The position numbers and the translations under genes were made by a program. A model generated the notes under the pieces. The model saw nothing but the letters and a program-made list of their open reading frames with translations. It was not told the origin of the DNA and did no database searches. Positions 24,428-40,621 of a stretch of 64,000 nucleotides of DNA are shown here, piece after piece. The stretch is taken from contig JAPPAK010000005.1 of the NCBI GenBank assembly GCA_026705605.1, positions 13,868-77,867 on the forward strand. Reading direction: 5' to 3'. Position 1 is the first letter of the stretch. Every line of letters starts with the position of its first letter. This DNA is from Chloroflexota bacterium. GTDB taxonomy: Bacteria > Chloroflexota > Dehalococcoidia > Tepidiformales > Tepidiformaceae.

Positions 24428-25330
24428 ACCGACGAGCCCATCAAGGGAGTGGACGGCCGCGAATACACGACCTGCCCTCAGTGCGGGGAGGACGCACTGG
24501 AGCTTCAGGGCAAGAACATCGTCGAATGGGGGTGGAAGATCGTCTGCCCAGAGTGCGGCTGGGAGAAGAAGCAGGCCGAGGGCCTTGACATCGCTCAGTA
24601 CTGCGACTTGATGGAAGAGGCCAAGGCGAGACTTGAGTCGATGAGTCAGCTGCTGCGTACGCCGGGGATCACCGATAGAACCCGTGTGGAGTCAATCGGC
24701 CTCCAGCTCCGGATGCTGCTCGAACTCATCGTGTTCAGCTCCCTGGTGTCCAACAAGGACGTATGGCAGAGGTCAAGAAAGGAGCTGCAAAGCTCTCAGG
24801 ACATGAGCAAGAAGCTCAAGGAGTTGAAACGCCTCCATCCCCACTTCTACCCAACACCAGTGGACCTGGAAGGAGATTCCCCGGGAGAGGAACCGGCGGA
24901 TCGCACCAGTGGGTTCATGGACGAGGCCAGGCTGATGGAGGTCTTCGGGAGGTTGGGCAACATCCTTCATGCCGAGAACCCCATGGGACGGGAGACTGAC
25001 TACGGATCCTTCATCGGTGCAGTCCCAGACTGGGTCGCCGAGGTGGTAAACCTGTTGGAGTGCCACAAGGTGCATCTCTACCACCGCCCAGACGAGTTCT
25101 ATCTGATCAAGCTGTTTGGGGACGTGGACGGCGACCTGCTGTGCATCCGGTTCAAAGTCACGGCGGAAGGGGAGACCAATTGCGCATGGCCTGACTGCGT
25201 GTCTTCAAGTATGCGGCTGCACTGCGAATACCTCGGGCGCCCTTGGGCAGAGTGTTGGCTTCCGGAGATTGAGCCAGCTCAGACGCAGGCCAAGGGGATA
25301 GCCAGCCAAGTCGATGACCTCCCGGACTAG
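24410..25330 (+). CDS. Zinc-ribbon protein of unknown function
   Basis: ORF 24041..25330. The first ~120 aa are R/G/P-rich junk, so the start is set at ATG 24410 (MSLNFQTDEPIKGVDGREY...). Two CxxC pairs (CPQCGED...CPECGWE) form a zinc ribbon. The remaining ~250 aa has no recognised family. The region is visibly less GC-rich than its flanks. Confidence 0.55.
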   Translation: MSLNFQTDEPIKGVDGREYTTCPQCGEDALELQGKNIVEWGWKIVCPECGWEKKQAEGLDIAQYCDLMEEAKARLESMSQLLRTPGITDRTRVESIGLQLRMLLELIVFSSLVSNKDVWQRSRKELQSSQDMSKKLKELKRLHPHFYPTPVDLEGDSPGEEPADRTSGFMDEARLMEVFGRLGNILHAENPMGRETDYGSFIGAVPDWVAEVVNLLECHKVHLYHRPDEFYLIKLFGDVDGDLLCIRFKVTAEGETNCAWPDCVSSSMRLHCEYLGRPWAECWLPEIEPAQTQAKGIASQVDDLPD

Positions 25331-25468
25331 CGTCGAGCGTTGGGGGTCTGTGGGTGGTCCCGCGCCACGCAAGGAGCACGACCCACAGCGCAACGGAAGC
25401 CACGCTGAAGCGACCGGCCCAACGGAAACCTGCGCATCTTGAACCCGGAGTCCTGAGTCAGCCGGGCC

Positions 25469-27319
25469 TCAGTCGGGTGCTTCCAGGATCCCGCTGACGA
25501 TCGCGTGAAGTTCTCTGAAGTTCACAAAGTACCGATGTGTCCCCTCTCTCAGGACGTGGTTGGCAAACTCGGTCTTACGATCGTTTGGGACCTCACGGCG
25601 TACTACATTTCCCTCGGGATCCATCACCGTGTTGGAAAACGGCTTCAGGATTTCTTCATCGTAGTTATTCTCTATTCCGTGGTCAGGGATCCCGCGCTCC
25701 TCCCGCTTCGGGAACGAGAACGGCGTAACCTTAGCGCCACGAGGGAGCTGGCCTCGAAGTTCCTTCTCCTTACTAGCTGCGTCACAATCCCACACTACGA
25801 CGAAATGTGTGTTGAGCTTCATCCTTCCAAGTAGCCGACCATATGTAAGCAGCATCCTGTCATTCGTGTGCGGCTCAAGTCCTTCGAAGACGTTGACGCC
25901 CTTCGGGAAGTACAGATCTACCCACCGCCTCAGATGCTTGGTGTTGTTCCCTTCCGTCAGGATCGTGACCCTGGCCCCGTCGTAGGCCGCGATTCGCAGG
26001 CCCGCGTCGACCGTGGCGATCCCGTCGGACAGCTCGCCGATGGCTTCCGACCTGGTGGTGCGTGCGACCTCGACGTGGCCGCCGCTCCTGGAGATGCGGA
26101 AGATGGCGTCTTCCTCCACGGCCGCCACCGTCATGGGCGAGTGGGAGGTCATCAGGACCTTCGTGCCCTTCGACACGAACAGCTCCCGCACGATCCCGAC
26201 CAGCGCCCTGACCATGGACGGGTGGAGCACGGTGTCGAGCTCGTCGAGAAGGAGCAGGCGCGGGCGGCGCCGTCCCATGTACTGGTTGAACGACACCAGG
26301 CAGAGCGCCATGAGCACCCGTTCTCCGGACGACAGCGCATTGAGCTCGTAGCGGGCGCCGGTGGTGCGGTTCTCCATCTCGGAGACGAACTCGAAGCCGA
26401 ACCGCCGGTAGGTCTCCATGTTGAGCGCGGCGTCTCCGGGGTCGGAGAACGCGAAGTCGAAGAGGCCGTCCTCCCCGGAGGCTTCCTTCATCGCCGCTAG
26501 GATGTCCCGCAGCGCTTCCCACGGTGGGCGGTGCTCCCTCGTATAGGCATCGATGAGATCCTGGTAGGGGATCTGCTTCGTCTCGACGGTTTCGTGCGCC
26601 CACGTGTACCGGTCGAGGACGTACTCGGCGAATATCGTGTTGAGCGGGTTGGTGATGAGGTCTCCCTCCAGGTGACCGGCGGAGAGGATGTCCTCGCGGG
26701 TCAACTCGTGGGGGAGCTTCCCCGCCAGCCTCATGGCCATGCTGAGGAGGGCCGCGCGGTTGCCGTCGTAGCCCGGCGCCGTTCCGCCTTGCCGGTCACT
26801 GCGCGTGGAGTTCAGGGGCTGCAGAACGGCGTCATGGAGTTCACGCAGGTACTCGCTGGTGAGGTCGGGTGCCCCGGAGGTGCTCGCTGACGGGAGCACC
26901 TCGAAGTCCGGGATGCGCCCGACCTCGTCCCTCAGCGCACGCACGAAGGCTTCGCGCGCGCCGGCTCCCGAGGCGTCCTCGATGGCGCCGGCGGCCCCGT
27001 CGAAGACCGCCTCCGCGGCCTCAACCGGACTGCGGTCGCGAGACCCGGCCAGCAGGTAATCGTCGGCGGTCGTCCTGGCGAAGTAGTTGCCTTGGCGGTC
27101 CGCCCGGTCCGTGTTGGGCGGGCGGAAGGTGAGCATGTCGAACAGCTCGACTTCCTCCACGGCGATGCCGGAAACCGCCGCGTGGCCTTGGCGAATGGCC
27201 TGCAGGAGCTGGGTCTTGCCCGTGCCGTTGCGGCCGATGAGGACGGCGAAGTCCGGCAGCTCCACGTCGGATTCGAGGCTCTCGATGGCGTTGTACGGCT
27301 CCCGCAGTTCGATCTTCAT
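25469..27319 (-). CDS. ABC/OLD-like ATPase with C-terminal Toprim/DUF4435-like domain
   Basis: 616-aa ORF. Motifs are Walker A LIGRNGTGKTQLLQAI, signature-like LSSGERVLMALCL, Walker B RLLLLDELDTVLHP and H-loop LMTSHSP. The C-terminal ~170 aa has Toprim-like acidic motifs (VTILTEGNNTKHL ... FVVVWDCDAAS). Confidence 0.8.
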   Translation of the reverse strand: MKIELREPYNAIESLESDVELPDFAVLIGRNGTGKTQLLQAIRQGHAAVSGIAVEEVELFDMLTFRPPNTDRADRQGNYFARTTADDYLLAGSRDRSPVEAAEAVFDGAAGAIEDASGAGAREAFVRALRDEVGRIPDFEVLPSASTSGAPDLTSEYLRELHDAVLQPLNSTRSDRQGGTAPGYDGNRAALLSMAMRLAGKLPHELTREDILSAGHLEGDLITNPLNTIFAEYVLDRYTWAHETVETKQIPYQDLIDAYTREHRPPWEALRDILAAMKEASGEDGLFDFAFSDPGDAALNMETYRRFGFEFVSEMENRTTGARYELNALSSGERVLMALCLVSFNQYMGRRRPRLLLLDELDTVLHPSMVRALVGIVRELFVSKGTKVLMTSHSPMTVAAVEEDAIFRISRSGGHVEVARTTRSEAIGELSDGIATVDAGLRIAAYDGARVTILTEGNNTKHLRRWVDLYFPKGVNVFEGLEPHTNDRMLLTYGRLLGRMKLNTHFVVVWDCDAASKEKELRGQLPRGAKVTPFSFPKREERGIPDHGIENNYDEEILKPFSNTVMDPEGNVVRREVPNDRKTEFANHVLREGTHRYFVNFRELHAIVSGILEAPD

Positions 27320-27446
27320 GCGGTTGCTCCTCCGGGCCGGCGCCTGCGCGTCGCGCCGGACGCCCGGGGCGGCCGCCGGGGGCGGCGGGACCGCACCCCG
27401 CCGGCGCCGACCTTATGGGGTGTCGATGACCGTGCACCCTCCACGG

Positions 27447-30170
27447 CTACCGATCCCACTTGAGGTCCTCTATTTCTTCTTCCAGCCAACTGAAAGCGAG
27501 GGTTGTTGCAGGCCGTGGTTGAAACAGCAGGTGAGAGGCGCTGGTAGACATGGAGAATAACTTTGCTTCCTGTCCAGGTTTTCCGCGCAGGGCAGTATAT
27601 TTTTCACTCTCTTCCAGGAAGTAATCTTCGCCAGCCCACCCTTCCTCTACGGTTTCGCCCATCTCGATCTCTGCTGAAGAATCTGCTCTTTCAGGCAGAA
27701 TTCTCGGTTGCCACATGACTGCGGGGTGGACGTGGGGCTCATCGCGATCCTCGGGGAACACCAGGACCCCGGTTATCTTGACGGGAAGCAGCGAGTACAG
27801 CCCGAAGTGATGCGCCATGGGTTCGAACCACTCTTCAACGACTTCCCTGTAGATTCGGAGCGCGGCGCTAAGGATCGCGTTGGTCCGCGAGAGCAGTTGC
27901 CCGTCGCTGTACGTCTTCCAGATCGGTCCTGATCTGAACTGGCCATCCCGTTCGGGCCACGGCGGCGGGACCACCTCCCGGCCCTGCTGCAGGTGCGCGG
28001 TCCAGTGGTCTCTGACGGCGGTGAGCTCTGCCCTGGAATACGACACGCCGCCAAGGCCCAGCATCTCGACTCCTTCATAGGCCTCGAGTCCTTCGATGAC
28101 GTCCCTGCTGGAAAGCTCCTGTGTGGCGACGGTTCGGCTTCCCAGGACCGTTGCCCCCAGTTCCCAGCTGAGCTCCCGGACTGCATCAGCCGAGTGAAGA
28201 CGGAGTTCGTACCCCTCCAATGCCCTGGCAAGCTCACGCCCCAGGTCTTCCTTGGTCAGGAGCCAGCTCCAGAGATCCGTGTTCGGGACGCTGCGGCCGC
28301 TGAAGGTCCAATCGCGAAGAGGCTGACTGTCAGCCGTTGCCGGGCTCACCAGTTCGGAGGGCTCCCTCTCGGCCGGCCCACGGTACCAGTGGGTCGTGAC
28401 CCAGTGACCGTTCACCCCGACCCGTAGGGGGCGCCGGGTTCCCCCGAGGGTGACAGGACCCACCAGGCGGAACAGGCCCCCCAGGCCCTTCTCCCAGGCA
28501 TCCAGGGCCGTACCGATCGCCCGCCCGGCAGCCATGGGGCTCCGCAGCGAAGGGACCGTCTCCTCATCTTCGTGGTCGTCCAGATACCACCGATCGCCAA
28601 CCGCCTCCTGGATAAGCATGCTGGTGAATCCGGGATCGGCCGCCGCGAGATGCTGCAGGAGGTCGCTGACGAATGTCCCGCTGCCGGCGTGCAGGGCGAT
28701 CGCGAGGGGAACGAGCCAGCGGTCGACCGGCCGGTTGAAGGAACCGATGGGGACCGTGCCTTCGACGACGGCCCTGGAGGCGTACCAGTCACGAAAGACC
28801 GGGAGCGCGAAGTCAACGGTGCCGCCCGTCTCAACGACGATCCTGGATCGCAGCAACAGGTTGTGCTGGGACAGTCGACTGTCGAGTTCCACGAGCGGCA
28901 CGCTGGCCCCTCGTTCGACGGCGAGGGCGGCGAGGGTGTGGAGGAGGCGGTCGAGGTCGCCGCTGGGGTCGGGCAACTCCCTGCGGGCGTCGGCGATCAC
29001 CTCCTCGATAAGCCGCCGCCTCGACGAGAACAGCAGATCGGGCTGTGTTCGGAGCCTGACCCCGAAAATGACGGCGCACAGGGGGTTGCGAGCCGCCTCC
29101 CGCATCGAAGTTGACCACTGGTAGGTGTGGCGGGGTTCCAGGTCCAGGCCGGAAAGGCGACACAGCAGCGAAAGCAGCTCCTCGTCGCTGAGTTCGGGCA
29201 TCGACCGGGGGCTGGCGGTGGAGGACAGTCCCGCAAGGGATCGGGACGTGAAGAGGATGGTGGCCTTCGGGTTGGCGTCGACGTACGCCAGTGCCTCCTG
29301 CACCAGGCCATTGGCTTCCCTGGTGCCTCGTTCGTCGAGCCCGTCAACGATGAGCAGCACGCCCTGGACGTAGGGGTCGGCATACCCCTGGCAGGCCTGC
29401 GCAATGTAGTTCGAAAGGGAGGTGGTCACCTCCCTGGCGCTGGCGAAGAGGGGGAAGGGGTGGGAAGGGTCCTCGAGCGCCTGGAGGATCGCAGTCTGAT
29501 AGAGCCTCTCGGCTGCCAGCGTCTTTCCCGCGCCAAGTTCTCCCGTGACCGTGTGGACGCCGGGCGGGGGATACGCCAGCACATTGCCGACAGCCGCATC
29601 GGCAGCGAGGGCGCTCGCGACGTCCTCGGGCACACCCAGCGAGCGCCACGCCGCGCTGCAGCTGGAGAGCGACAGGGCGTGACGTTCCCGCAGCGTCTTC
29701 CCACGAGACACGTACCCGGGACGGCGTACGGAACGGACGAGTTCGTCGGACAGTGCAGCGCGTATCGCCTCGCGCAGGTGGGAGACATCGTCCACGTCCT
29801 GCCACTTGGCAACCCCGCTGACGGTGTCCAGAAGACGGAGCGTCTCTTCCGTTCGTTCCTCACTGGGCAACCTGAACACCAGCAACCGCCCCTGGGAAGC
29901 AATGCACTGGGTCACTTCGTTGGCGACGGGCTGGGTCGTCTCCCGGCCGACAAGCCAGATGACGAAGTCCGCTTCGGCAACCTTGCGAAGGTAGCCGTCC
30001 TCGGCCGTCTCGGAGCTCGCGGGGGTGTATTCGAACGCCCAGGGATGCCCGAAGTCGAGGGACTGAATTGCCAGGGTGGTCGTCTCCCGAGCAGGATCAA
30101 AGGCGGGCGCCATCACACTGCTGACGAATACCAGGAGGTCGGACTCGCTGCGGTGGAGAGGTCGTGGCAC
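27447..30170 (-). CDS. STAND NTPase: DUF4062/TIR-like N-terminal domain + NACHT module + long uncharacterised C-terminal region
   Basis: 907-aa ORF. The N-terminus reads LLVFVSSVMAP...ADFVIWLVGRETT...GRLLVFRL. The P-loop is TGELGAGKTLAAERLYQ and Walker B is GVLLIVDGLDERG. About 500 aa of the C-terminus has no recognisable repeats. Confidence 0.8.
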   Translation of the reverse strand: MPRPLHRSESDLLVFVSSVMAPAFDPARETTTLAIQSLDFGHPWAFEYTPASSETAEDGYLRKVAEADFVIWLVGRETTQPVANEVTQCIASQGRLLVFRLPSEERTEETLRLLDTVSGVAKWQDVDDVSHLREAIRAALSDELVRSVRRPGYVSRGKTLRERHALSLSSCSAAWRSLGVPEDVASALAADAAVGNVLAYPPPGVHTVTGELGAGKTLAAERLYQTAILQALEDPSHPFPLFASAREVTTSLSNYIAQACQGYADPYVQGVLLIVDGLDERGTREANGLVQEALAYVDANPKATILFTSRSLAGLSSTASPRSMPELSDEELLSLLCRLSGLDLEPRHTYQWSTSMREAARNPLCAVIFGVRLRTQPDLLFSSRRRLIEEVIADARRELPDPSGDLDRLLHTLAALAVERGASVPLVELDSRLSQHNLLLRSRIVVETGGTVDFALPVFRDWYASRAVVEGTVPIGSFNRPVDRWLVPLAIALHAGSGTFVSDLLQHLAAADPGFTSMLIQEAVGDRWYLDDHEDEETVPSLRSPMAAGRAIGTALDAWEKGLGGLFRLVGPVTLGGTRRPLRVGVNGHWVTTHWYRGPAEREPSELVSPATADSQPLRDWTFSGRSVPNTDLWSWLLTKEDLGRELARALEGYELRLHSADAVRELSWELGATVLGSRTVATQELSSRDVIEGLEAYEGVEMLGLGGVSYSRAELTAVRDHWTAHLQQGREVVPPPWPERDGQFRSGPIWKTYSDGQLLSRTNAILSAALRIYREVVEEWFEPMAHHFGLYSLLPVKITGVLVFPEDRDEPHVHPAVMWQPRILPERADSSAEIEMGETVEEGWAGEDYFLEESEKYTALRGKPGQEAKLFSMSTSASHLLFQPRPATTLAFSWLEEEIEDLKWDR

Positions 30171-30519
30171 GCTACGCGGCTCCGATGCGATCGTAGGGAG
30201 ATCGGTGTCCGCGGTGACCGATCAAGGGTTCCTCTCCCTCCGAACCAGGGGATGAGGACTTCCCTCACAGCCTTCGCCCGACCCGGTGTGTGCTCGTCCG
30301 CCCTGGCTTTGAGCGTGCGCGGGCTATTGGTCGGAGCGGGACACGCCTTCAGCATACCCGGCTGGAAGGCCACAGGAGATCTGTCGACGCTTTCTGTCGC
30401 CCTTCACGGGCCCGCGCGGGCGGCACCTCCCGCCGCGCCGCCGGCCAGGCACCGTTCCGGCTCGTCCGTGCAGGGTTCAGACCCTCTTGCGACACTGCGC
30501 CCTGGCGAGCGAACAGGCC

Positions 30520-31485
30520 CTAGTTCCCTAGTCCCGGAACCGCGTAACTTAGGTCTTCAGCGATTCGTTCGAGTTCATCCACGTCGAATGCCCCTGACCA
30601 GAGGGGCAGGAGAACGCTAGACTTGGATGACAACAGGTGGCCTACGAGCAATATCTCGGGCTGGTTCAGGAAGACGCTGCCTACTCGGTTGTCACGGCGT
30701 TGGCGCAAGCGCTCAGGCAGCCAAGATCGGCTCGATTCAGCCCACTCGACTGCCTTGCCGCTGATGGCGTCTGCATCGAGCCCTGGGAAGGCTGGGAAGA
30801 GCGTCTCAATGACTTCTTGACTGAGGACGCGATCGTAGGAACCCCCTCCGAGACTCAGGAACGTGCCCTCGACCTCCGAGAGTACTCGAAGCGGCTCATA
30901 GTTAGGGTCCTTGATGATCTCCTGGAATATCTCCTCATACCTCATATCGGCGAGTTCCAATACCGCGGCAAGGGCTGCCAAAGATCGTCCGTGTAGGTAC
31001 GGGGTTTCTCTCACTCCTTTGTAGGAAAGGAAGTGGGACATATTCGCCCAAGCATCTTCAGTTACAGTGCGAACTTGCAGTTCGCACTCCAGATCGGAAA
31101 ATTCAGGACTTCCTCCCCGACCAGTGAGTTGGATATGAACAGACCTGTATGAAAATGTATCAACGTCAAGTGCTTTCCTCTTGTCGTCTACTACACCGCC
31201 AAAATTTTCATGCAGCGCACGCACGGCCCGATCTACATCTGAGGGAACACGTACAACAACACGAACACCAACCTTGTCCGTGACCTGCGAGTACGCGCCG
31301 TACCCCTTGCGGAGCACCTTCTTGGCAATGCTGTCTGGATCTTTGATGCGGAGTGAAACCCTCTCAGCTGCGATTCGCTCAGTTTGAAGAACCGTGTTGA
31401 CGTCAGCTTCGATGGCCTGACCGTACTCTCGATGCCGCGGTTCTTCCACTTCCCACTTGGCTAAAGCTTCGCTCGCAACGGACAT
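30520..31485 (-). CDS. RelA/SpoT-domain nucleotide pyrophosphokinase (small alarmone synthetase / toxSAS-like) with private C-terminal extension
   Basis: ORF 30520..31545. The start is set at ATG 31485, 1 nt after the upstream stop. Synthetase motifs are RIKDPDSIAKK, DKVGVRVVV, YRSVHIQL and ELQVRTVTEDAWANMSH. There are no HD, TGS or ACT regions. Confidence 0.85.
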   Translation of the reverse strand: MSVASEALAKWEVEEPRHREYGQAIEADVNTVLQTERIAAERVSLRIKDPDSIAKKVLRKGYGAYSQVTDKVGVRVVVRVPSDVDRAVRALHENFGGVVDDKRKALDVDTFSYRSVHIQLTGRGGSPEFSDLECELQVRTVTEDAWANMSHFLSYKGVRETPYLHGRSLAALAAVLELADMRYEEIFQEIIKDPNYEPLRVLSEVEGTFLSLGGGSYDRVLSQEVIETLFPAFPGLDADAISGKAVEWAESSRSWLPERLRQRRDNRVGSVFLNQPEILLVGHLLSSKSSVLLPLWSGAFDVDELERIAEDLSYAVPGLGN

Positions 31486-31486
31486 A

Positions 31487-32518
31487 CTAGCCGACTCTAA
31501 ATTCGTCGCGCACGGTGACATTAACTTCTGAGCTAGATGCGTCAAGGTCCCCGACTGTTACCCGATTAACCCATTCGGATGGTGGTCCTGCAATCATCAT
31601 CCCATTGGCTCCTATCATTCTGAGCCTTGAGACGGTGGGTCCAACTAGGGCGTTGTCCTTCTCAAACTGCGGTGGAGCGCCTTTCTCGTCTAGTGCCGCA
31701 TCGAGCAATGGAATCTCTTCTGTCTCCAGATAAGCCTGAGCGAACTGAGAAGGCGTGATTGTAGCTTTGCGCGAGTTTAGCTCACTGGCAAGATCCAAGC
31801 GAAGCTCGGTCTGGCGCTTCGGATCAGAAATCTCGCTGATGACACTCTCCACTGCTTCGACAAATCGCTTGGTGGCTTCTCTGGAATCTATGGCAGGTTC
31901 TGCCCCGAGGAACGCGTGGATGAAGAAGCGAGCAGCAGCCCTCCTTGCATTGAAGCCTCTCTGACGATCAGCGACCTCCAGGACATAGCCGTCAGCGCTA
32001 CGCAGCACGAAAGCTTGTTTGTGCAGTCTGGTTCGTGTGGAGAGGATGAGATCCCGCACGTGTTCGAGCTCGACTATGCGGGTGCCATCGGGAAGCTCCT
32101 TCCGGTCGATCCTCACGCCCTGTTCGTGCTCGAGCTTCAGGAAGATGAGGGCTGGGATGCGGCTATGCTGACCAAGAGCTACTGCCAGCAGCCCTCCTGA
32201 GCTAGAGCCAGGCTGGACGCTGGCGAGATGGAGAGCCGCTTCCCGAGACGCAGTCAAGAGACTGTCCGGATCGGTTTCCAGAACATCGACGCAGAGCTGG
32301 GGTACTGGCGACTCGCTGCCACTGGAGAATTGAGCCCGGAAGGACTCCTCCGATGCGGCCACGCTGATGATTCGCTGCTCGAAGAACTCTGCGAGATCGG
32401 GCGTGAGTTCGCTCAGTTGGTCCGTGAGAATCACAGACGCCCCGGCACCAGGAACTCCTTTACGGATCTCGTGGACCACCATCTGATGTACGGCCAAGCC
32501 ATGAAGGTCAAGGGGCAT
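31487..32518 (-). CDS. NdpA/YejK-like nucleoid-associated protein family (NA37) member
   Basis: 343-aa ATG ORF. The N-terminus LHGLAVHQMVVHEIRK, central GGLLAVALG...ALIFLKLEHE and FFIHAFLGAEPAIDSREATKRF resemble E. coli YejK blocks (INQIALHQLIKRD.., ..FFMDFLGASEG..). Recognised by eye, not by search. Confidence 0.65.
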   Translation of the reverse strand: MPLDLHGLAVHQMVVHEIRKGVPGAGASVILTDQLSELTPDLAEFFEQRIISVAASEESFRAQFSSGSESPVPQLCVDVLETDPDSLLTASREAALHLASVQPGSSSGGLLAVALGQHSRIPALIFLKLEHEQGVRIDRKELPDGTRIVELEHVRDLILSTRTRLHKQAFVLRSADGYVLEVADRQRGFNARRAAARFFIHAFLGAEPAIDSREATKRFVEAVESVISEISDPKRQTELRLDLASELNSRKATITPSQFAQAYLETEEIPLLDAALDEKGAPPQFEKDNALVGPTVSRLRMIGANGMMIAGPPSEWVNRVTVGDLDASSSEVNVTVRDEFRVG

Positions 32519-32751
32519 AAGCGATCGTGCAGGAATGTGATGTCACCCTATCACAGGCGCACTCTTCCAGCAGGAAGGGCAGGAGGCGGTGATGGTGCTC
32601 GAGGTGGCAGCCGGGCTTGCGTAGGGATGTCCTCCCGGAGGAAGGTCAGCACCGCGGTAGGGCTGCTGCTCACTCTCCGATCGGGGTCGCAGTATTCCTA
32701 CGATCACCTTCAAGTGCTGGCACACAAGAACGCTCGACATATAGGTAGCCG

Positions 32752-32786
32752 GGGAGGCCATCGCCACGCGACTGCGATGGCCTCCC
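32752..32786 (-). terminator. Perfect 13-bp-stem hairpin just downstream of the SNF2 gene stop
   Basis: gggaggccatcgc-cacgcgact-gcgatggcctccc. It lies 15 nt after the stop codon at 32801-32803 on the minus strand. There is no clear U-tract, so it may be an I-shaped terminator or a stability element. Confidence 0.5.
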
Positions 32787-32800: not shown

Positions 32801-35056
32801 CTAGCCCCCTGCCCCAGTCAGCTCGGCCTCCCGCTCCCGCTCGAGCGCCCACTCGAACAGCGAGAGCGTTGGGGCTTCGTGCCGACGCTGGCCCTTCGGC
32901 TCGCCCGACTCCCCGGCCATAAACTCCGCCCACGAGAACAGCAACCGCTGCGGCTCCGAGTGCACGGCGTCCGTGACACTCTCGCTAGGCACTGCGGCTG
33001 CGGCCGCAACCAGATCTGGCTGGGGCCCGCGCCACTCCTCGTCGACCAGCAGCGCCTCGGCTTCCGCCGCGACCTGCTGGGCCTGGGCGAAGACCGACTC
33101 GACCGAGCCTGTGTCCTCCTCGCCCGCGACGATCTTGCGCGCCAGGGTGAGCATCAGGTCGTCACCCTCGTCCCCGTGGGCGGCGAGGCCGTCCTCCGGT
33201 AGCTCACCCTCCACAGCCAGCGACGACTGGAGCTTCTGCGCCACCAGCTTGAGGGCGTCGGCCTGCAGGGTGTTCCGGTAGGCCATGAAGACGACCTGGA
33301 CGGGCTCGGTCTGGCCGATGCGCCAGGAGCGCCGTGACGCCTGCCGCATGGTGTAGACGGAGTAGTCCGTCTCGTACCAGCAGATCGTCGGGAACTCCAC
33401 GAGGTCCAGCCCCGTCTGCACGAGCCGCGGGTGGCAGACGAGCACGTCGACGCCCTCCTCGACGCGCTTCGCCACCCATGCCTCGCGGCGCTCGGGCGGG
33501 ACCGCGTCGGCCTTCATGACCGCGACCTTGAAACCGTGGCGGGAAAGGAACTCCTCCATGCGCCCGGTGATGTCGCGCGTGCCCGTGTGGGTCGCGTAGA
33601 CCAGCACCCGGCGCCCCGCCAGCCGCTCGGCGGCGACGAGGTCGACGAGCGCCCGCTCCTTCGGGTAGAGCCGCTCCTCGGAGAGGGGCGGCACCTGCAC
33701 GAGCACGTCCTCCGTTTCCGGGTCGAAGACCGTCTCGCCGCGCGTGCAGCCGTCAGGGTAGGCCAGCAGCGTCTGCAGGTACGTGGCGAGGAGACGCTTC
33801 GAACCCTTCGCGAGGAGCTCCGTCAGCGCCTTCCGCAGCGTCCCGAAGAGCTCGTCGTAGGCGCTCCGCTGGGAGAGCCCGGTGCCGTCCTCCTCGGTCT
33901 CCATGTCCGAGAGGAGCACCCGCTCCTCGTAGGGCGGCAGCCCGGCGGCGACGTCGGAGAGCCTGAGAAAGACGGAGTTGCCGATGAGGTGGAAGAGCGC
34001 CGCGGGGGCGAGCCCCGGGCGCTCCCGGATGACCTTGCGGTACTTCCGCCGGCGGCTCGTGCGGCCGTCCTCGAGGGACTCGCCGTCGTCACGCCCGATC
34101 GTGTGCTCGACGAAGCCGTAGCGCTCGATCCAGCGGCTTTCCTCCCCCCGCCCGAACTCCCCCCGGATCTCCGGCGAGAACCGGTAGAGCAGGTGGAAGA
34201 GCGTGGAGGAATACCCTCCCATCAAGGTGCCGCTCAGGGAGAGCGACTTGCCGCAGGCGTCGGCGAGGATGCCGGCGGCGATGCCCTGGGCAGAGCCTCT
34301 TCCCTTGTACTCGTGGACCTCGTCACTCACCAGCAGGTCGAAGAAGCCCCGCAGGTGGTGCTTCACGTAGTCGGCGAGGGGGTAGCGCTTCGGACCAGAC
34401 TTGTCCGCCTTCCACAGTGCGGAGCCGCACTCGTCGCAGGCGCGCTTCCTGCGGGCGAGGTCCTTCTGCGTGAGGGGCAGCCCGTCCTTGTCCACGATCG
34501 GCTCGAAGCAGTCCGGGCAGCACGGTACCCGGAACGGCTCCAGCGTCTCCTCATGGCGGACGAGCCTGCCGTCCGCCGTAGCCCAGCGCTCGACGACGGC
34601 CGGCAGCCAGCGGTAGGAGAGCTTCGCGCGCTCACGCGACATGACCGCGAAGAGCGGTCCCGTCCCGTGGGACAGGCGCAGCTTCTCGAGGTCGGTCATG
34701 GAGGCGACGACGGCGGCGCGGGCGTCGGGCACCGTCTCCTCGACCTCGCGCTTCCACTTGCGGGTGAGGTGTGGCGGGCAGAGGACGAGGATGCGGCGGA
34801 AGCCGGCCAGGTGGGCGGCGGAGGCTGCGATGAAGGTTTTCCCCGTCCCCATCTCCCCAACGACGGTGGTGCCGCGGTGTTCCTCGAGGGAGAGGGCGGC
34901 GCCGCGGATGGCGTCCGCCTGCGCCCCCAGCGGCATCCGCAAGAGTTGCGGAAGGGGCCGTCGATTCTCGGAGGGCCGGTAGCGGGGCGGGTAGGACTCC
35001 ACCACCCGCTGGGCGATGGCGTCGCGGTAGGTGTCGATGAACTCTGCGAGGTCCAT
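32801..35056 (-). CDS. SNF2-family helicase with inserted zinc ribbon
   Basis: ORF 32801..35650, but the first ~198 aa are R/P/G-rich. The start is set at ATG 35056, preceded by AAAGGAA. Motifs are VGEMGTGKTFIA, LVSDEVHEYKG (DExH), RRVLVYATHTGTRD and ASRRSWRIGQTEPVQVVFM. The zinc ribbon is CCPDCFEP...CDECGSALW. Confidence 0.85.
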   Translation of the reverse strand: MDLAEFIDTYRDAIAQRVVESYPPRYRPSENRRPLPQLLRMPLGAQADAIRGAALSLEEHRGTTVVGEMGTGKTFIAASAAHLAGFRRILVLCPPHLTRKWKREVEETVPDARAAVVASMTDLEKLRLSHGTGPLFAVMSRERAKLSYRWLPAVVERWATADGRLVRHEETLEPFRVPCCPDCFEPIVDKDGLPLTQKDLARRKRACDECGSALWKADKSGPKRYPLADYVKHHLRGFFDLLVSDEVHEYKGRGSAQGIAAGILADACGKSLSLSGTLMGGYSSTLFHLLYRFSPEIRGEFGRGEESRWIERYGFVEHTIGRDDGESLEDGRTSRRRKYRKVIRERPGLAPAALFHLIGNSVFLRLSDVAAGLPPYEERVLLSDMETEEDGTGLSQRSAYDELFGTLRKALTELLAKGSKRLLATYLQTLLAYPDGCTRGETVFDPETEDVLVQVPPLSEERLYPKERALVDLVAAERLAGRRVLVYATHTGTRDITGRMEEFLSRHGFKVAVMKADAVPPERREAWVAKRVEEGVDVLVCHPRLVQTGLDLVEFPTICWYETDYSVYTMRQASRRSWRIGQTEPVQVVFMAYRNTLQADALKLVAQKLQSSLAVEGELPEDGLAAHGDEGDDLMLTLARKIVAGEEDTGSVESVFAQAQQVAAEAEALLVDEEWRGPQPDLVAAAAAVPSESVTDAVHSEPQRLLFSWAEFMAGESGEPKGQRRHEAPTLSLFEWALEREREAELTGAGG

Positions 35057-35217
35057 GGTTCCGTTCCTTTCGTGTTGCTGTAGGGTTCGCGGGCGGCCAC
35101 CCGTGCGGCCGTCCATGTGAAGCGAGGCCCCGCCTACCGATGGGTGGCAGGCGGGGCCTCGTGCTTGCGGATCGGCGTCGACCCGTCGAGCCGCCAGATG
35201 GAGGCGGCTGGAAGAAA

Positions 35218-36255
35218 TCAGGCGGCGATGTCGGTGACCTGTCCGGTGTCCAGGTCGAGGGCGACGACGGTGGTGACGAGACGCTCGCGGAAGGTCTCCT
35301 TCGTGGGCGTGCTTTCGACGAGGTGCATCTCTTTCGAGGTGCGGCCCTTGACGAGGATGCGGCTGCCTTCGGATTCGAGTTGGAGGTTGTCGAGGAAGCC
35401 CGCCGCCACGAGCATGGCTAGGTGGCCGCGCCGGAGCGGCATGAGCGGTCGCGTGCGCTGGTCCTGGGCGGGCCAGAGCAGGTCGGTGACGGCGGTGCTG
35501 GCCCAGAGCCCCGAGCGCCGCGCCTCGTCCGCCGCCGCCACCGGGTCGACGGTGCGGGTGGCGAAGAGGACGTCCCCCGCGGGCGTGGCCGAGGCCAGGT
35601 AGAGGGGGTAGCGCCGGGGAGCCAGCTCGGGAGCCTCTCCCGCGGCCCACCCGTGGATGCGCTCCTCGGCATAGGCGTCGAGGAAGACCTCCGCCTTGCG
35701 GTAGCCCATGAGGACGACCTGGTCGTAGGCCTCGCGCTCCGGCTCGGGGAAGGCCCAGCAGTCGAGGCGAGAGAAGTGGGAGGCGAGGTACCTTGCCGAC
35801 ACCGCCAGCCGCTGCCGGGGCACGACGAGGACGAGCAGGCCGTCCTCCGCCAGGTAACGGGTGCAGTGGGTGAGGAAGGCGTGCTCAACGCGCTTCTCCT
35901 CCCCCGAGTCCCAGTCGTAGGGTGGATTGAGGTACAACAGCCCGAAGGCGCCGTTGGCGATCGAGGTGGCGAAGAGGTCGGTCCCGAGCACGTGGTCGAG
36001 GCGGGACTTCGCCATCTCCGCGCGCTCGGCGTGGAGTTCCACCCCGTACGTCTCCACGTCGGCGGCGTGCGGCTTGCGGAGGGCGTTCGCCAGCCGCACG
36101 AGGGCATCGCCCTCGCCGCAGCAGGGGTCGAGAACGCGGAGCGTCTCGTCCTTGCGGGCGTAGCCCGCGGGCGGCTGGATCAGCTCCGCGATCAGGTCGG
36201 TCACTCTCTGCGGCGTCGGGTAGAAGCCTCCCTTCGCCTGGGCTGTCAGTCTCAT
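35218..36255 (-). CDS. SAM-dependent DNA amino-methyltransferase (NPPY type)
   Basis: ORF 35218..36642; start set at ATG 36255 (GGAAGGAGA upstream). Motif I is VLDPCCGEGDAL and motif IV is LNPPYD. ATGA overlap with the upstream gene. Confidence 0.8.
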   Translation of the reverse strand: MRLTAQAKGGFYPTPQRVTDLIAELIQPPAGYARKDETLRVLDPCCGEGDALVRLANALRKPHAADVETYGVELHAERAEMAKSRLDHVLGTDLFATSIANGAFGLLYLNPPYDWDSGEEKRVEHAFLTHCTRYLAEDGLLVLVVPRQRLAVSARYLASHFSRLDCWAFPEPEREAYDQVVLMGYRKAEVFLDAYAEERIHGWAAGEAPELAPRRYPLYLASATPAGDVLFATRTVDPVAAADEARRSGLWASTAVTDLLWPAQDQRTRPLMPLRRGHLAMLVAAGFLDNLQLESEGSRILVKGRTSKEMHLVESTPTKETFRERLVTTVVALDLDTGQVTDIAA

Positions 36256-36893
36256 CGGATGTCTCCTTCCTGGTCGGTGGCCGGTGTGGATGCGTCCCCG
36301 TCGCGCGGCAGCGTCAGGAGTCCCGACGCGACCGCCACGGAGAGGTCGTCCCGGAGCGCCTCGGCGTCCGGGTCGCAGCGGTAGGCGACGACGCCCTCCG
36401 ACTGCAGGGGGACGGCCTCCTCCCGCGCCAGCGCCCGCCGCCAGAGCCAGTCCGCCCAGGAGCGGTGCAACGGCAGGGGGCTGCGGCGGTCGAGGAAGCG
36501 ATGGTGGAGCGAGGGCGCCTCCTCCTCGTTCTTCGCCAGGAGGAGGAAGGCGTCCCGCTCGAAGGCGTACTCGGCGAGCCTCGTATGGACGAGGGCGTGC
36601 CAGCCGCCCGAGACGGGCAGGCGGGTGATCTTCGTGGTCCACGTCCCGACCGTCTCGCGGGGGACGTGGCAGCGCTGGTAGCCAGCCGAGAGGGCCATGC
36701 CGTCCGCCCCACGGATGAGGTGAGCGGGGTCGGGCGGCTGCTTCAGGAGCGAGCCCCAGATGGCCTTGAGGGCGGTCTGGGAGCCCACCATGGAGAGGAA
36801 CCAGAGGCCGCCGTCATCGGCGTCCCTGGCGAAGGCGTCGGCCGTGGCGGAGAAGCCGCCGGCGGTAACGGTGTGGAGGTCGTCGGGCGTCAC
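36252..36893 (-). CDS. Hypothetical protein
   Basis: ORF 36252..37043; the likely start is GTG 36893 (GGAGG upstream, GTGA overlap with the preceding gene). No family recognised. Confidence 0.45.
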   Translation of the reverse strand: MTPDDLHTVTAGGFSATADAFARDADDGGLWFLSMVGSQTALKAIWGSLLKQPPDPAHLIRGADGMALSAGYQRCHVPRETVGTWTTKITRLPVSGGWHALVHTRLAEYAFERDAFLLLAKNEEEAPSLHHRFLDRRSPLPLHRSWADWLWRRALAREEAVPLQSEGVVAYRCDPDAEALRDDLSVAVASGLLTLPRDGDASTPATDQEGDIR

Positions 36894-37246
36894 GACGCGG
36901 CCTCCAGGTAGTGGGCTCCGAAGGCGGCGCCCAGGTCGCACCAGTCGTCGGACCGCAGGGACCACTCGCCGCAGGCGCAGCGCCCGTCGTAGTAGAGCGG
37001 CGCTGCGTCGAGCCTCACGATCAGGTCGTGCGGGAGCGTCCACGAGGGCAGCTTCTCGAACGACGCCATCTCCGTGGCCAGGTGGCGGTCGCAGTAGTGA
37101 CCCCAGGTGTCGTCACCGGGGTCGTCGAGGATCTCGGTGGTCGCGGGATGCGGCTGCGGACAGTCGTCGCAGAGCATCCCCTCGACCGCGGGCTGGGTGG
37201 TGAAGGTGTGCCGCCGGTCCTCGAGGACGGCACGGATCGTGGTCAT
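36890..37246 (-). CDS. Small Cys-motif protein, paralogue 1 (GRCACGEWSLRSDDWCDLG)
   Basis: ORF 36890..37306; start set at ATG 37246 (MTTIRAVLE, AAGGAG upstream). It shares the G[HR]C.C..WS.R..[DE]W..LG...[AW]H motif with the genes at 37847 and 38476. Confidence 0.5.
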   Translation of the reverse strand: MTTIRAVLEDRRHTFTTQPAVEGMLCDDCPQPHPATTEILDDPGDDTWGHYCDRHLATEMASFEKLPSWTLPHDLIVRLDAAPLYYDGRCACGEWSLRSDDWCDLGAAFGAHYLEAAS

Positions 37247-37352
37247 GATTCCTGCTCCTTCGTGTGGGTGGGCGGAAACGACGGCGGGGCCGGTCCCGGC
37301 AGGCATGGCCCCGTGGGGCGACGCCCGTTGGCGGCGCTCCGTGTGCGAGCGG

Positions 37353-37850
37353 TCAGTCGAAGAGCTGCCGGTCCTTCAGGCTGACGGCTTCCTCGCTGCC
37401 GATGACGACGTGGTCGAGGAGCTTCAGGCCGAGCAGGTTCGCCGCCTCTGCCAGCTCCCTCGTGACCTTCACGTCCTGGTAGCTGGGGGTGGGGTCACCG
37501 CTCGGGTGGTTGTGGGCGACGATGAGGTTGGGGATGCCCTCGACGACCGCCGGGCGCAGCACCTCGGCCGGCCTGACGACGCTGGAGAAGACGTTCCCCT
37601 GGTAGATGACGCGCTGCCCGACCACGCAGTTGCGGCGATCGAGCAGGAGGATGCGCACCTGCTCCTGGCAGAGGGCGCCCATCTCCTCCCCGAGGAGCTT
37701 CCGGACGTCCTCGGGGCCGGTGATGGAGGGCCCGCCGTCCGCGCGACCGGGGTCGGTCTCGACCTCGTAGCGCACGGCCAGCTCGTTGAGGACATGCAGG
37801 TTGCGGCGCAGCGCCTCCAGCAGGGCCTCGGTGTGGGCCTCAGCCGTCAC
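37353..37850 (-). CDS. radC: RadC-like JAB/MPN domain protein
   Basis: ORF 37353..38516, but only the C-terminal 165 aa look real. The GTG start at 37850 overlaps the upstream stop (GTGA). The JAMM motif is LIVAHNHPSGDPTPS. Confidence 0.85.
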   Translation of the reverse strand: MTAEAHTEALLEALRRNLHVLNELAVRYEVETDPGRADGGPSITGPEDVRKLLGEEMGALCQEQVRILLLDRRNCVVGQRVIYQGNVFSSVVRPAEVLRPAVVEGIPNLIVAHNHPSGDPTPSYQDVKVTRELAEAANLLGLKLLDHVVIGSEEAVSLKDRQLFD

Positions 37851-38347
37851 GATCCCGTCTCCTCGCAGATGCAGTCCTCGTGGTCGGGGGAGTCGGGCTC
37901 CTCGCAGGTGCGGCAGTTGCCGCAGTCGGGGCAGGTGTCGGTCTGGTGGGCGGCATCGCGCGCGTGGCGCCGGGCGACGGTGTCCTCCCAGCAGCAGTTG
38001 CGCTCGCAGTTGTCGCCGCACTCCTCGTTCGCGGCTTCCTCGCAGGCGCGGCAGTGGGTCCGCCCCTTGACGATGGGCGTGCCGCAGCCGCGGCAGTCGC
38101 TGCCATAGTTGTCGATGGCTTCCAGCTCGGCCCGCACCGTCTTGCGGACGAGGTCGTCGTCCGTGGGCCGCTCGGTCGCCGCGATGTAGTGCCATGCCCA
38201 CTTCGTGCCGAGGTCGCTCCAGTCGTCGGTCCGGTAGGACCAGCGGTCGCAGGTGCAGTGGCCGCTGTAGTGGTCGGGCCCCTCGAGCAGGGTCATCACG
38301 AGGGTGTGCCTGCTCACGCAGGGCAGTTCTTCGCGCGTGGTCGTCAT
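37847..38347 (-). CDS. Cys-rich protein, paralogue 2 (GHCTCDRWSYRTDDWSDLG) with Cys-rich tail
   Basis: 166-aa ATG ORF with AAGGAGA upstream. It has the shared motif plus a CRGCGTPIVKGRTHCRACEE zinc-ribbon-like segment and the tail CGDNCERNCCWED...CPDCGNCRTCEE...CICEE. Confidence 0.6.
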   Translation of the reverse strand: MTTTREELPCVSRHTLVMTLLEGPDHYSGHCTCDRWSYRTDDWSDLGTKWAWHYIAATERPTDDDLVRKTVRAELEAIDNYGSDCRGCGTPIVKGRTHCRACEEAANEECGDNCERNCCWEDTVARRHARDAAHQTDTCPDCGNCRTCEEPDSPDHEDCICEETGS

Positions 38348-38383
38348 TGGAGTTTCTCCTTCTGGTGCTGGTTAGTCGGACAC

Positions 38384-38440
38384 GAAGCGGGGCCGCCCCC
38401 GGAAGGACGGCCCCGTGTGCGCTCCCGGTCGGGGAGCGTC
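38384..38440 (-). repeat. Intergenic GC-rich double-hairpin element, copy 1
   Basis: gaagcggggccgcccccggaaggacggccccgtgtgcgctcccggtcggggagcgtc. The stems are GGGGCCG../..CGGCCCC and GCGCTCC../..GGAGCG. It lies between the stop at 38476 and the start at 38347. Confidence 0.65.
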
Positions 38441-38475
38441 TTGCTGGTTGGCTGGTGAGCACCCTGGTCGAGCGC

Positions 38476-38835
38476 TCATGCCCCTTTCGCCGTCTCGGCG
38501 GCGTTGGGCTCCGCACCCGCCGGCTCCTCGCAGGAGTTGCAGCGGCTCCGTCCCTTGACGAGGGGGAAGCCGCAGCCTTCGCAGCCGCCGCCGTAGTCGT
38601 CGAAGGCCTGCAGTTCGGCCTTCACGGCCTGCCGAATGAGCGGGTGGTCGTCGGGCCGCTCGGACTCGGCGACGACGTGCCAGGCCCAGCGGGCGCCGAG
38701 CTCGGCCCACTCGCCCGTCCGCCAGGACCAGCGGTCGCAGGCGCAGTGGCCGTCAAAGCAGTCAGGGCTGAGTCGCTCCGCGCCGTCCAGCGGGGTCACG
38801 ATCAGCCTGTGCGTTCCGTCGTCCGGGTAGTACAC
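38476..38835 (-). CDS. Cys-motif protein, paralogue 3 (GHCACDRWSWRTGEWAELG)
   Basis: 119-aa ORF with a GTG start and GGAGGGA upstream. It shares both the N-terminal motif and the AELQAFDDYGGGCEGCGFPLVKGRSRCNSCEE segment with paralogue 2. Confidence 0.6.
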   Translation of the reverse strand: MYYPDDGTHRLIVTPLDGAERLSPDCFDGHCACDRWSWRTGEWAELGARWAWHVVAESERPDDHPLIRQAVKAELQAFDDYGGGCEGCGFPLVKGRSRCNSCEEPAGAEPNAAETAKGA

Positions 38836-38892
38836 GTCGGGGTTCTCCCTCCGGCTTGCTGGGGCGCGGCACAGGCCGCGCCGGGTCGAGAA

Positions 38893-38950
38893 CGAAAGCG
38901 GGGCCGCCCCCGGAGGGACGGCCCCGTATCGGCGCTCCGGCAGGAGCGTC
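38893..38950 (-). repeat. Intergenic GC-rich double-hairpin element, copy 2
   Basis: cgaaagcggggccgcccccggagggacggccccgtatcggcgctccggcaggagcgtc. Its first hairpin is near-identical to those of copies 1 and 3. Confidence 0.65.
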
Positions 38951-38955
38951 CGGGC

Positions 38956-39999
38956 TCAGCTGACGCGGACCGACTCGGTGGTCTGCTCCGTGACGATCTC
39001 CCTGCGCGTCTCCGCGTCGAGGAGGGCGTTCAGCTTCTTGTGGTTGACCGCGTAGCGCGTGCTGCGCACGAGGCTGACGGTGTGGTCGGCGAGCTCCGCC
39101 TTCGCGGAGCCCCGCTGGCGCATCCACGCCTTGAGGGTGTCGAGGGCCTGACGCTTCGCCCCCTCGGGCTCGCGCAGGGCCTCCCTGGCGACAACGTACG
39201 AGGACACCGCCGCGCGGGCCTCCTCGTCGGTCACCTCGGGCTCTCCGGTCTGCGGCGTTGCCGTGCTCTCCGCCGCGTCACCTGGCAGGCAGGTGGCGAG
39301 GAAGGGACAGGAGTTGCAGCGCCAGCTGCCCGCCTCGAAGTCGCGCTCGGGCAGGGCAGCGGGGTTGGCCCCGTGGGTGGCGTGGTGGGCGCCCAGCGGC
39401 GTGAGCCACTCGCGCGTCCGCTCAAGGGCACGCTCGACCCGCTCAGCCGGGATCACCTCGTGGTCCCAGGCGCGGTCGCCCGTGTCCATCACGGCGATGA
39501 CGGCGTCGCGCGCCTCCCCGAAGAGCCCGTAGGTGTAGAGCGCGGCCTGGGCGACGGAATCGGGGTGGCTGCGCTCGGCTCCGAGGGTCTGCCAGCGCTT
39601 GAACGCCGAGGGCCCGCGGGTCTTCACCTCAATGACGCCGCCCTCCCCGAAGAGGGGCGGCGTACCGGTGGCGTCGGGGTGGCCCGTCACCTTCACCATC
39701 GGGGTGAGCTGCAGGACGACGCCCGTGGGCCTCGTGGCGTCCGCGGGAGTGACCTCCCAGCCCGCCCGCTGCATGGCGTGGAGCACCACCGGCTCCAGGG
39801 CGCGGCCCGTCTCCAGGACGGTCAGGGCCGCGTCGTCCGGCGGCGCGGGCTCGTGGCCCGTGGCTGCGTACCAGAGGGCGCGCCGGCAGCTCATTGCCGC
39901 CGAGGCCCGCACCTCCAGGTGCCCCTCACAGTCGAAGCTGGCACTGGGGCGGTCGTAGGCGCCCGCGTGGGAGGCGGGACCGTTGACGGTTTCCTTCAT
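38956..39999 (-). CDS. Cas4/RecB-family PD-(D/E)XK exonuclease with Fe-S-type cysteines
   Basis: 347-aa ATG ORF. The nuclease core is GHPDATG...GVIEVKTRG. The cysteine pattern is one N-terminal Cys plus CNSCPFLATC (CX2CX5C). A ~100-aa C-terminal extension follows. Confidence 0.7.
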   Translation of the reverse strand: MKETVNGPASHAGAYDRPSASFDCEGHLEVRASAAMSCRRALWYAATGHEPAPPDDAALTVLETGRALEPVVLHAMQRAGWEVTPADATRPTGVVLQLTPMVKVTGHPDATGTPPLFGEGGVIEVKTRGPSAFKRWQTLGAERSHPDSVAQAALYTYGLFGEARDAVIAVMDTGDRAWDHEVIPAERVERALERTREWLTPLGAHHATHGANPAALPERDFEAGSWRCNSCPFLATCLPGDAAESTATPQTGEPEVTDEEARAAVSSYVVAREALREPEGAKRQALDTLKAWMRQRGSAKAELADHTVSLVRSTRYAVNHKKLNALLDAETRREIVTEQTTESVRVS

Positions 40000-40015
40000 G
40001 GGTTCCTCCTCTCAA

Positions 40016-40057: not shown

Positions 40058-40075
40058 TTCGCCTGTGGCGTCTGC

Positions 40076-40609: not shown

Positions 40610-40621
40610 GGGGCGTGACGG

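Follow-up and report, generated by a model that had tools for sequence, protein, structure and literature searches.

Organization of the cassette

The DNA stretch analysed here, called the window, consists of 64,000 nt of contig JAPPAK010000005.1 from a Chloroflexota metagenome-assembled genome (MAG; GCA_026705605.1), and all positions are numbered within it. The window carries a cassette of two minus-strand open reading frames (ORFs), in which gene A, coding for an NA37 protein of 343 amino acids (aa), lies upstream of gene B, coding for a RelA_SpoT protein of 321 aa. The initial annotation, made from the DNA letters, had put the pair forward as an undescribed defence module. The pair has, however, an architecture that was already described as type I PANGU in an April 2026 preprint, and is not a new class. 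The cassette is probably a divergent, horizontally acquired Chloroflexota member of this class, in which a nucleoid-associated protein (NAP) would be the sensor and a toxic small alarmone synthetase (toxSAS) the effector. The features of the cassette and its borders are as follows.

31487..32518, minus strand: ORF A, pag1A-like gene for a YejK/NA37-family nucleoid-associated protein (343 aa), predicted to be a DNA-bound sensor/activator
30520..31485, minus strand: ORF B, pag1B-like gene (321 aa)
31483..31489, minus strand: A/B junction, TAG-T-ATG with a 1-nt spacer, reading ...GGC TAG T ATG TCC...
31006..31485, minus strand: synthetase (toxSYNTH/RelA_SpoT) domain of B, aa 1-160; alpha/beta (aa 1-155 in the model), with the G-loop Y113 in YRSVH
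30907..31005, minus strand: long helix H163-192 of B joining both domains, from DSSP on the AlphaFold2 (AF2) model
30520..30906, minus strand: acidic all-alpha C-terminal domain of B, aa 194-321 and stop codon; helices H194-311, motif FLxQPE...W...ELExIA
32752..32786, no strand assigned: hairpin with a 13-bp stem (32752-32764/32774-32786) and a 9-nt loop, 100% complementary
32519..32751, minus strand: leader between the hairpin and the A start codon, with a GC content (62%) between those of the cassette and its flanks
30171..30519, minus strand: spacer between the cassette and a NACHT-like gene, 349 nt, GC-rich (68.8% GC)

The TAG-T-ATG junction is consistent with translational coupling of A and B. 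The start of B at ATG 31485 is backed by the N-termini of homologues, by the Logan gene calls for the same locus and by the NCBI record of the protein (MCY3646779.1, 321 aa); a TTG at 31545, giving a 341-aa form, would be possible in principle. Protein A is identical to NCBI MCY3646780.1, which is annotated as a 'nucleoid-associated protein' of a Chloroflexota MAG. The hairpin starts about 15 nt past the stop of the SNF2-like helicase ORF lying upstream (ORF end 32801), so that it most simply terminates the helicase operon, and it probably insulates the cassette as well. A simple terminator scan did not call it because it has no T-tail. The helicase stop and the start codon of A are separated by a 282-nt spacer. 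The cassette's own promoter presumably lies inside the leader; a consensus scan of the leader found no sigma-70-like promoter, and consensus searches for promoters and terminators brought up no signal above chance. No third gene was called in the 349-nt spacer downstream of B, either in the ORF list or by Logan. The single-nucleotide gap between two minus-strand genes, the perfect 13-bp stem, the leader of about 280 nt and the 349-nt gap had all been described in the initial annotation, and each was recovered at the same place.

The cassette has the lowest GC content in the window (55.8% versus 67.7% for the whole), and the only 2-kb windows with less than 60% GC are those overlapping it. The G+C content at third codon positions (GC3) is 0.57-0.61 in the cassette genes versus 0.77-0.91 in the neighbouring genes. 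The low GC and GC3 indicate that the cassette is a recent foreign, horizontally acquired insert. An acquired low-GC insert had been suggested before on the basis of hand counts in two 60-nt segments, and recounting gave the same numbers, 30/60 at 31081-31140 and 46/60 at 36301-36360.

Conservation and co-inheritance of the gene pair

A single-sequence search with B retrieved seven full-length relatives only. When a profile was built from the full-length relatives of B (E <= 1e-5), at least 357 protein clusters could be collected among the candidates scored. The 120 clusters listed were all 316-330 aa long, and those with names were mostly from Bacteroidota. A genome scan with the family was evaluated for the best 80 of at least 576 matches, and gene contexts were read for 20 full-length loci (L001-L012, L015, L023, L024 and L090-L094) representing about 15 independent lineages. 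The contexts came from metagenome contigs, GTDB genomes (Acidobacteriota, Terriglobales, Bacteroidales, Flavobacterium and others), a Streptomyces linear plasmid and a conjugative-element-like contig. The family belongs mainly to Bacteroidota, Acidobacteriota, Chloroflexota and Actinomycetota.

An NA37 gene was present immediately upstream of the synthetase gene in all 20 full-length loci, although disrupted in L001, so that the survey of NA37-RelA_SpoT adjacency proposed in the initial annotation returned a co-conserved pair. The spacing of the two genes in 14 relatives ranged from -4 to +34 nt (overlaps of 4 or 1 nt, gaps of at most 34 nt). The pairwise identities of A and of B across 15 loci were correlated with r = 0.98, a value that none of 2000 Mantel permutations reached. 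In contrast, some 70 genome loci matching the synthetase domain only had no NA37 ORF within 4 kb, including when searched with a broad NA37 hidden Markov model (HMM; 126 sequences). Judged from these comparisons, A and B are a co-conserved, co-diverging unit that is inherited and transferred together across phyla.

The flanking genes are unrelated between loci and often belong to defence or mobile functions, therefore the pair is a self-contained mobile module. The flanks of the relatives included a CBASS-like set of SMODS, ThiF/JAB and methylase genes; a RES toxin, a type I restriction-modification system and an AAA_15 ATPase; an IS1595 transposase; a prohead-protease (phage-like) context; and MobC/relaxase genes. 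A tblastn search against plasmids found one further NA37-synthetase pair only, on a Streptomyces plasmid.

501893-504077 of Streptomyces sp. NBC_01334 plasmid NZ_CP130719.1 (locus L090): NA37 gene (388 aa) and RelA_SpoT gene (327 aa, 'hypothetical protein')

This plasmid is linear and 561 kb long, and the pair, an actinomycete member of the family, lies among IS5 copies and a contact-dependent inhibition (CDI) immunity gene. No NA37 protein was found in the phage collection, and the IMG/VR scan with the family profile found nothing.

The closest homologue of the cassette is L001, with 82% nucleotide identity over the whole cassette and 77% identity in the synthetase. The NA37 frame of this locus (924-1960) is broken by two frameshifts, while its synthetase is intact. 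The frameshifts could be real decay or an error of long-read metagenome assembly. An intact synthetase beside a broken NA37 gene fits an activator role of NA37, because cells would tolerate the loss of an activator but not the loss of an antitoxin.

A three-gene operon of the form NA37-synthetase-NA37 was present in five Bacteroidota-type loci (L011, L012, L015, L024 and L091).

Second NA37 gene, about 348 aa, 0-9 nt after the synthetase gene: L011:4985-6031, L012:4961-6010, L015:4963-6009, L024:4991-6040, L091:3759-4802

This second paralogue fits the Pfam NA37 consensus more closely, with E 1e-31 to 1e-37, and the two NA37 paralogues of the three-gene form may act as a heterodimeric NAP clamp.

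Domain architecture of the NA37 protein

Protein A matched Pfam NA37 (PF04245) with E = 5.6e-17 and 62.6 bits over residues 14-288, and its AF2 model had a predicted local distance difference test (pLDDT) score of 91.4. The sole significant match of this model in the fold search of the PDB was Escherichia coli YejK (9be2, E = 4e-11, full-length alignment); the NA37 family membership predicted for the upstream protein was thereby confirmed. Residues 189-192 of the model have low confidence, and a basic cluster (R185, R187, R192, R193 and R197) lies within and next to this segment. Protein A shares its fold and Pfam family with E. coli YejK/NdpA, however, the two are only 18% identical, and A scored 13.3 bits against the YejK equivalog model NCBIfam NF001557, for which the cut-off is 341, and a housekeeping YejK/NdpA orthologue could thus be ruled out. 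Moreover, A is part of an effector operon on foreign DNA, whereas YejK is a stand-alone core gene.

Domain architecture of the synthetase

Protein B matched Pfam RelA_SpoT (PF04607) with E = 5e-17 over residues 46-157, and the Pfam search detected no HD, TGS or ACT domain. The columns R46, K48, S52, K56, D70, G73, R75, Y113, S115, H117, E135, Q137, R139, W146 and H151 are invariant in the family, with Y113, the catalytic G-loop tyrosine, invariant across 127 sequences. These data agree with the initial annotation, in which all synthetase motifs of RelA/SpoT homologues had been recognized and the hydrolase and regulatory regions found lacking.

The AF2 model of B (pLDDT 90.2; predicted template-modelling (TM) score, pTM, 0.83) was compared with known folds using Foldseek. 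The best matches were the Bacillus subtilis small alarmone synthetases (SAS) SAS1/RelQ and SAS2/RelP, with TMt of about 0.8 and 20-24% identity, and the pppGpp-bound structures 5ded and 6ex0 were among them. RelQ/SAS1 and RelP/SAS2 (5dec, 5ded, 6fgk, 6ex0) are homotetramers that make (p)ppGpp; they resemble B in the fold of the catalytic domain and in all catalytic motifs, but they are single-domain housekeeping proteins of about 210 aa without the C-terminal domain and without an NA37 partner. Against the YjbM equivalog NCBIfam NF053588, B scored 36.9 bits with a cut-off of 320, and together with its length of 321 aa and extra domain this ruled out B being a housekeeping RelQ/YjbM or RelP/YwaC. 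In PADLOC, B matched the single-gene candidate PDC-S33 with 39.3 bits at profile positions 44-175 of 349; membership in PDC-S33 was rejected, as the match covers the synthetase N-domain only.

CapRel 7ztb and FaRel2 8pu3 also occurred among the fold matches of B, the CapRel match being weak (TM 0.38-0.46, root-mean-square deviation (rmsd) >10 A). CapRel(SJ46) (7ztb, 9erv) shares the synthetase fold with B and, as is predicted for B, is a small RelA/SpoT enzyme of anti-phage defence that is regulated through its C-terminal domain. It differs in being a single gene; its product is kept inactive by its own C-terminal domain, is switched on by phage capsid or other proteins and pyrophosphorylates tRNA. 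The window family has a strictly conserved separate NA37 partner instead, and this partner together with the weak fold match ruled out a fused toxin-antitoxin (TA) system of the CapRel type. The framing of B as a toxSAS of the CapRel/FaRel/PhRel type in the initial annotation was not upheld, since the fold is nearer to RelQ/RelP (TM about 0.8) than to CapRel (TM about 0.4), and the product of PANGU is pppGpp and not a modified tRNA.

The catalytic domain of B is near-neutral (net charge -2, isoelectric point (pI) 6.2), and aa 166-321 are acidic (net charge -11, pI 4.5). The C-terminal segment was net-negative (-3 to -15) in 15 of the 15 family members tested. This domain is kept over its full length in the family, with Q275, P276 and W296 invariant. 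Thus, the C-terminal extension of about 150 aa, which had been considered private to this protein, turned out to be an acidic all-helical domain conserved across the at least 357 clusters. The 50 PDB matches listed for the model of B aligned over about 245 columns at most, so no clear structural counterpart of the C-terminal domain was among them. It is predicted to be a docking site, similar to a DNA mimic, for the NA37 protein.

Comparison with type I PANGU and proposed mechanism

PANGU systems protect against phages and are encoded as two-gene operons centred on a YejK-like NAP (Li et al., 6 April 2026, bioRxiv 10.64898/2026.04.06.716658). Type I consists of the NAP Pag1A and the gRel toxSAS Pag1B, in which a toxSYNTH domain at the N-terminus is followed, after an alpha-helical linker, by an acidic "DNA-mimicking" (DMK) domain at the C-terminus. 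Defence needs both genes, while Pag1A, Pag1B or both together are non-toxic. Pag1B alone is an inactive tetramer; the Pag1A dimer attaches to the C-terminal domain at nanomolar affinity to give an A2B complex, which turns ATP plus GTP/GDP/GMP into AMP and (pp)pGpp without labelling tRNA (bioRxiv 10.64898/2026.04.06.716658). Pag1A binds long DNA non-specifically and departs from the nucleoid on infection, DNA-binding-deficient Pag1A turns the pair toxic, and T4 escapes by mutations in denA (EndoII). The reported trigger is degradation of the chromosome by the phage, which releases the NAP, starts pppGpp synthesis and aborts infection; the pair is not a toxin-antitoxin pair (bioRxiv 10.64898/2026.04.06.716658). 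The preprint found type I PANGU in more than five phyla, sporadically in Actinomycetota, described co-evolution of Pag1A and Pag1B, and argued that NAP-based systems are polyphyletic; SLATT is the only extra gene mentioned, and a second NA37 is unmentioned (bioRxiv 10.64898/2026.04.06.716658). The systems tested came from the gammaproteobacteria F. futtsuensis, Pseudomonas aeruginosa and E. coli and were assayed in E. coli (same preprint). Independent support comes from the E. coli two-gene system DS-1, which contains a YejK-domain protein and was validated with DefensePredictor (PMC13092281); the E. coli NA37 genes in the supplements of that study are on draft contigs only. These two reports, taken together, are the reason why the pair can no longer be called undescribed.

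The window pair resembles type I PANGU in being bicistronic, with a YejK/NA37 protein (about 340-360 aa in the two systems) and a toxSAS (about 320-340 aa), in the order of the N-terminal synthetase, helical linker and acidic C-terminal domain, in the G-loop tyrosine, in the defence-island or mobile context and in the co-evolution of the partners. It differs from the tested systems in its host, a Chloroflexota MAG as opposed to gammaproteobacteria, and some of its relatives, though not the window locus, have a second NA37 gene. The F. futtsuensis mentioned above is, we presume, Ferrimonas futtsuensis. The PANGU search defined the sensor as a YejK-like protein (NA37/IPR007358) with a minimum length of 300 aa and HMM E < 1e-10 (bioRxiv 10.64898/2026.04.06.716658), and A falls within these limits with 343 aa, an NA37 match of E = 5.6e-17 and the YejK fold. 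A type I operon is expected to have its genes on the same strand less than 40 bp apart, and the window pair has a 1-nt spacer; its effector is expected to have an N-terminal toxSYNTH domain with the G-loop tyrosine, and B has PF04607 at 5e-17, Y113 and an SAS fold. A transfer of the residue numbers of the preprint onto B by a fixed offset was rejected as meaningless. Sequence and fold searches with A and B found no PANGU entry in the PDB. Type II PANGU and DS-1, which are validated two-gene anti-phage systems, share with the window pair a YejK-domain protein, essential in these systems; their partner is a transmembrane or hypothetical (non-enzymatic) protein and not a RelA/SpoT synthetase.

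By analogy with type I PANGU, the NA37 dimer of an uninfected cell would be sequestered on chromosomal DNA, with the synthetase held in an inactive oligomer. A phage that degrades the host chromosome would set NA37 free to bind the acidic C-terminal domain of the synthetase, and the active complex would then transfer pyrophosphate from ATP to GTP/GDP/GMP. As (pp)pGpp built up and ATP and GTP dropped, transcription and translation would stop and the infection would be aborted. In such a scheme it is free NA37 that switches on the synthetase, so NA37 would be a sensor and activator, not an antitoxin. The initial annotation had left both roles open for the NA37 protein: a nucleoid-binding sensor gating a pyrophosphokinase in abortive infection matches the preprint almost exactly, while the antitoxin role did not fit, the NAP of PANGU being an activator.

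Several points weigh against assigning the cassette to type I PANGU. The mechanism comes from one preprint that has yet to pass peer review and deals with gammaproteobacterial systems assayed in E. coli. The likeness of the pair to Pag1A/Pag1B, gRel and DMK is drawn from the published description and not from sequence, and DNA mimicry by the C-terminal domain of B rests on net charge and helical content only. Among the best 80 of at least 576 matches of the genome scan, an NA37 neighbour was found in 0 of the 4 named gammaproteobacterial genomes, so true gRel proteins may be only distant kin of the B family. The frameshifts of L001 could come from the assembly of long metagenome reads. PADLOC-DB v2.0.0 (2023) has no model covering the pair; the search for an already named system there, as suggested in the initial annotation, gave no more than the partial PDC-S33 match.

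Alternative explanations

A classical type II toxSAS toxin-antitoxin system would consist of a constitutively active synthetase toxin, acting by tRNA 3'-pyrophosphorylation or by (pp)pApp synthesis, and an NA37 antitoxin that is removed or degraded on infection. A small RelA/SpoT protein without a hydrolase, whose gene adjoins that of a partner amid mobile and defence genes, could be read in this way; the upstream position of the partner is typical of antitoxins, toxSAS TA systems are established, and CapRel and FaRel2 were found among the fold matches of B. Nevertheless, this explanation is improbable: the preprint observed no toxicity of either gene or of both, an activating NA37 protein and no tRNA labelling, and a 343-aa partner with the YejK fold is unlike any described toxSAS antitoxin (a small protein, a small alarmone hydrolase (SAH) or a fused C-terminal domain). 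The near-neutral catalytic domain of B is also far nearer to RelQ/RelP than to CapRel/FaRel2, and L001 has its intact synthetase beside a frameshifted NA37 gene. That the two genes are a housekeeping pair of an ordinary nucleoid protein and a stringent-response SAS with no role in immunity is hardly to be expected. Both NA37/YejK and SAS proteins do include housekeeping members, but the equivalog scores are far short (13 versus 341 bits for A and 37 versus 320 bits for B), the composition is foreign, the distribution is patchy with flanks that differ per locus and are often mobile or defence genes, and the conserved C-terminal domain is absent from RelP/RelQ.

The same sensor-effector logic may also operate with another chemistry or trigger, B being a non-gRel toxSAS that makes (pp)pApp or modifies tRNA, or NA37 sensing phage DNA or protein. 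B is likened to gRel by description only, and gRel has been defined as gamma-proteobacterial (PMC3153485), whereas the family of B is mostly from Bacteroidota, Acidobacteriota, Chloroflexota and Actinomycetota. The polyphyly of NAP-based systems argued in the preprint and the second NA37 paralogue of some relatives point in the same direction. We consider this unlikely, as the G-loop YRSxH and the best folds are those of guanosine-accepting SAS enzymes (pppGpp-bound 5ded and 6ex0) and the domain layout is the same as in the description of Pag1B. Given the difference in taxonomy from gammaproteobacterial gRel and the missing gammaproteobacterial NA37 neighbours, the window family could be a sister or an independently recruited lineage. 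A tentative extension of this idea, possible although doubtful, is that the B family (at least 357 clusters with the FLxQPE...W C-terminal domain) is a toxSAS lineage distinct from gammaproteobacterial gRel that became paired with NA37 independently or anciently, and that forms a second NAP-activated type, possibly with another product or trigger. A divergent type I PANGU member is still the explanation that we favour.

Genomic surroundings of the cassette

The module sits in a defence/mobile island of about 36 kb, which is bracketed by two giant fn3/cadherin surface-protein genes. The defence and mobile setting noted in the initial annotation, with a NACHT-like gene downstream and a mobile-element-like block upstream, was confirmed. 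The neighbouring features in the window are as follows.

2540-10279 and 50351-57106, both minus strand: giant secreted/surface proteins of 2579 and 2251 aa with fn3, cadherin-like, subtilase, Calx-beta and arylsulfotransferase-like domains
12112-14222, plus strand: AbiEi-like gene (weak Pfam match), then AbiEii nucleotidyltransferase toxin gene (Pfam 1.8e-39)
15685-22714, plus strand: consecutive genes for NurA, a HerA-like ATPase, SbcD and SbcC, forming an end-resection cluster of archaeal type
25469-27319, minus strand: OLD-like ATPase (AAA_21/AAA_15), 616 aa, matching the PADLOC ATPase-Toprim, AriA, PtuA and GajA models
25469-30170, minus strand: ATPase and NACHT-like block directly downstream of the cassette; NACHT-like protein of 907 aa with a weak NACHT match
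32801-47590: mobile-element-like block upstream of the cassette, with an SNF2-like helicase, a DUF6094 methyltransferase (PADLOC mad2-like), a RadC-like JAB protein, a Rad52/22 recombinase, a DnaG-type primase and a Fic protein

The AbiEi/AbiEii genes of the island constitute a type IV TA or abortive-infection pair. In the NurA-HerA-SbcD-SbcC cluster, the SbcC-like protein matched LmuB and mad3 and the HerA-like protein matched mad8 in PADLOC, and the cluster may serve in repair or in defence. Defence genes are present within 10 kb, as the NACHT-like gene adjoins the cassette and the OLD-like ATPase gene is 3.2 kb away. GC dips of 55-61% were seen downstream of the cassette at 24500-26000 and 27250-28000. 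The ATPase and NACHT-like genes are not kept beside the cassette in its relatives and are therefore separate defence candidates. As tRNA genes are absent from the window, an integration site could not be located by means of one.

Significance

A reading of the sequence alone recovered here a defence architecture whose experimental characterisation is very recent, and the locus would extend immunity by a NAP sensor and an alarmone synthetase to a Chloroflexota MAG. The relatives indicate that the co-evolving pair moves through Bacteroidota, Acidobacteriota, Actinomycetota and others; conjugative elements and a Streptomyces plasmid carry it, and in one case it lies among phage-like genes. For annotation, pairs of this kind, in which a "nucleoid-associated protein" is followed by a "hypothetical protein" or "GTP pyrophosphokinase", are candidate PANGU-like defence genes, and the conserved C-terminal motif of the synthetase (FLxQPE...W...ELExIA) can be used as their signature. 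If the family should prove to be a distinct lineage of NAP-activated synthetases, it would be worth a separate study.

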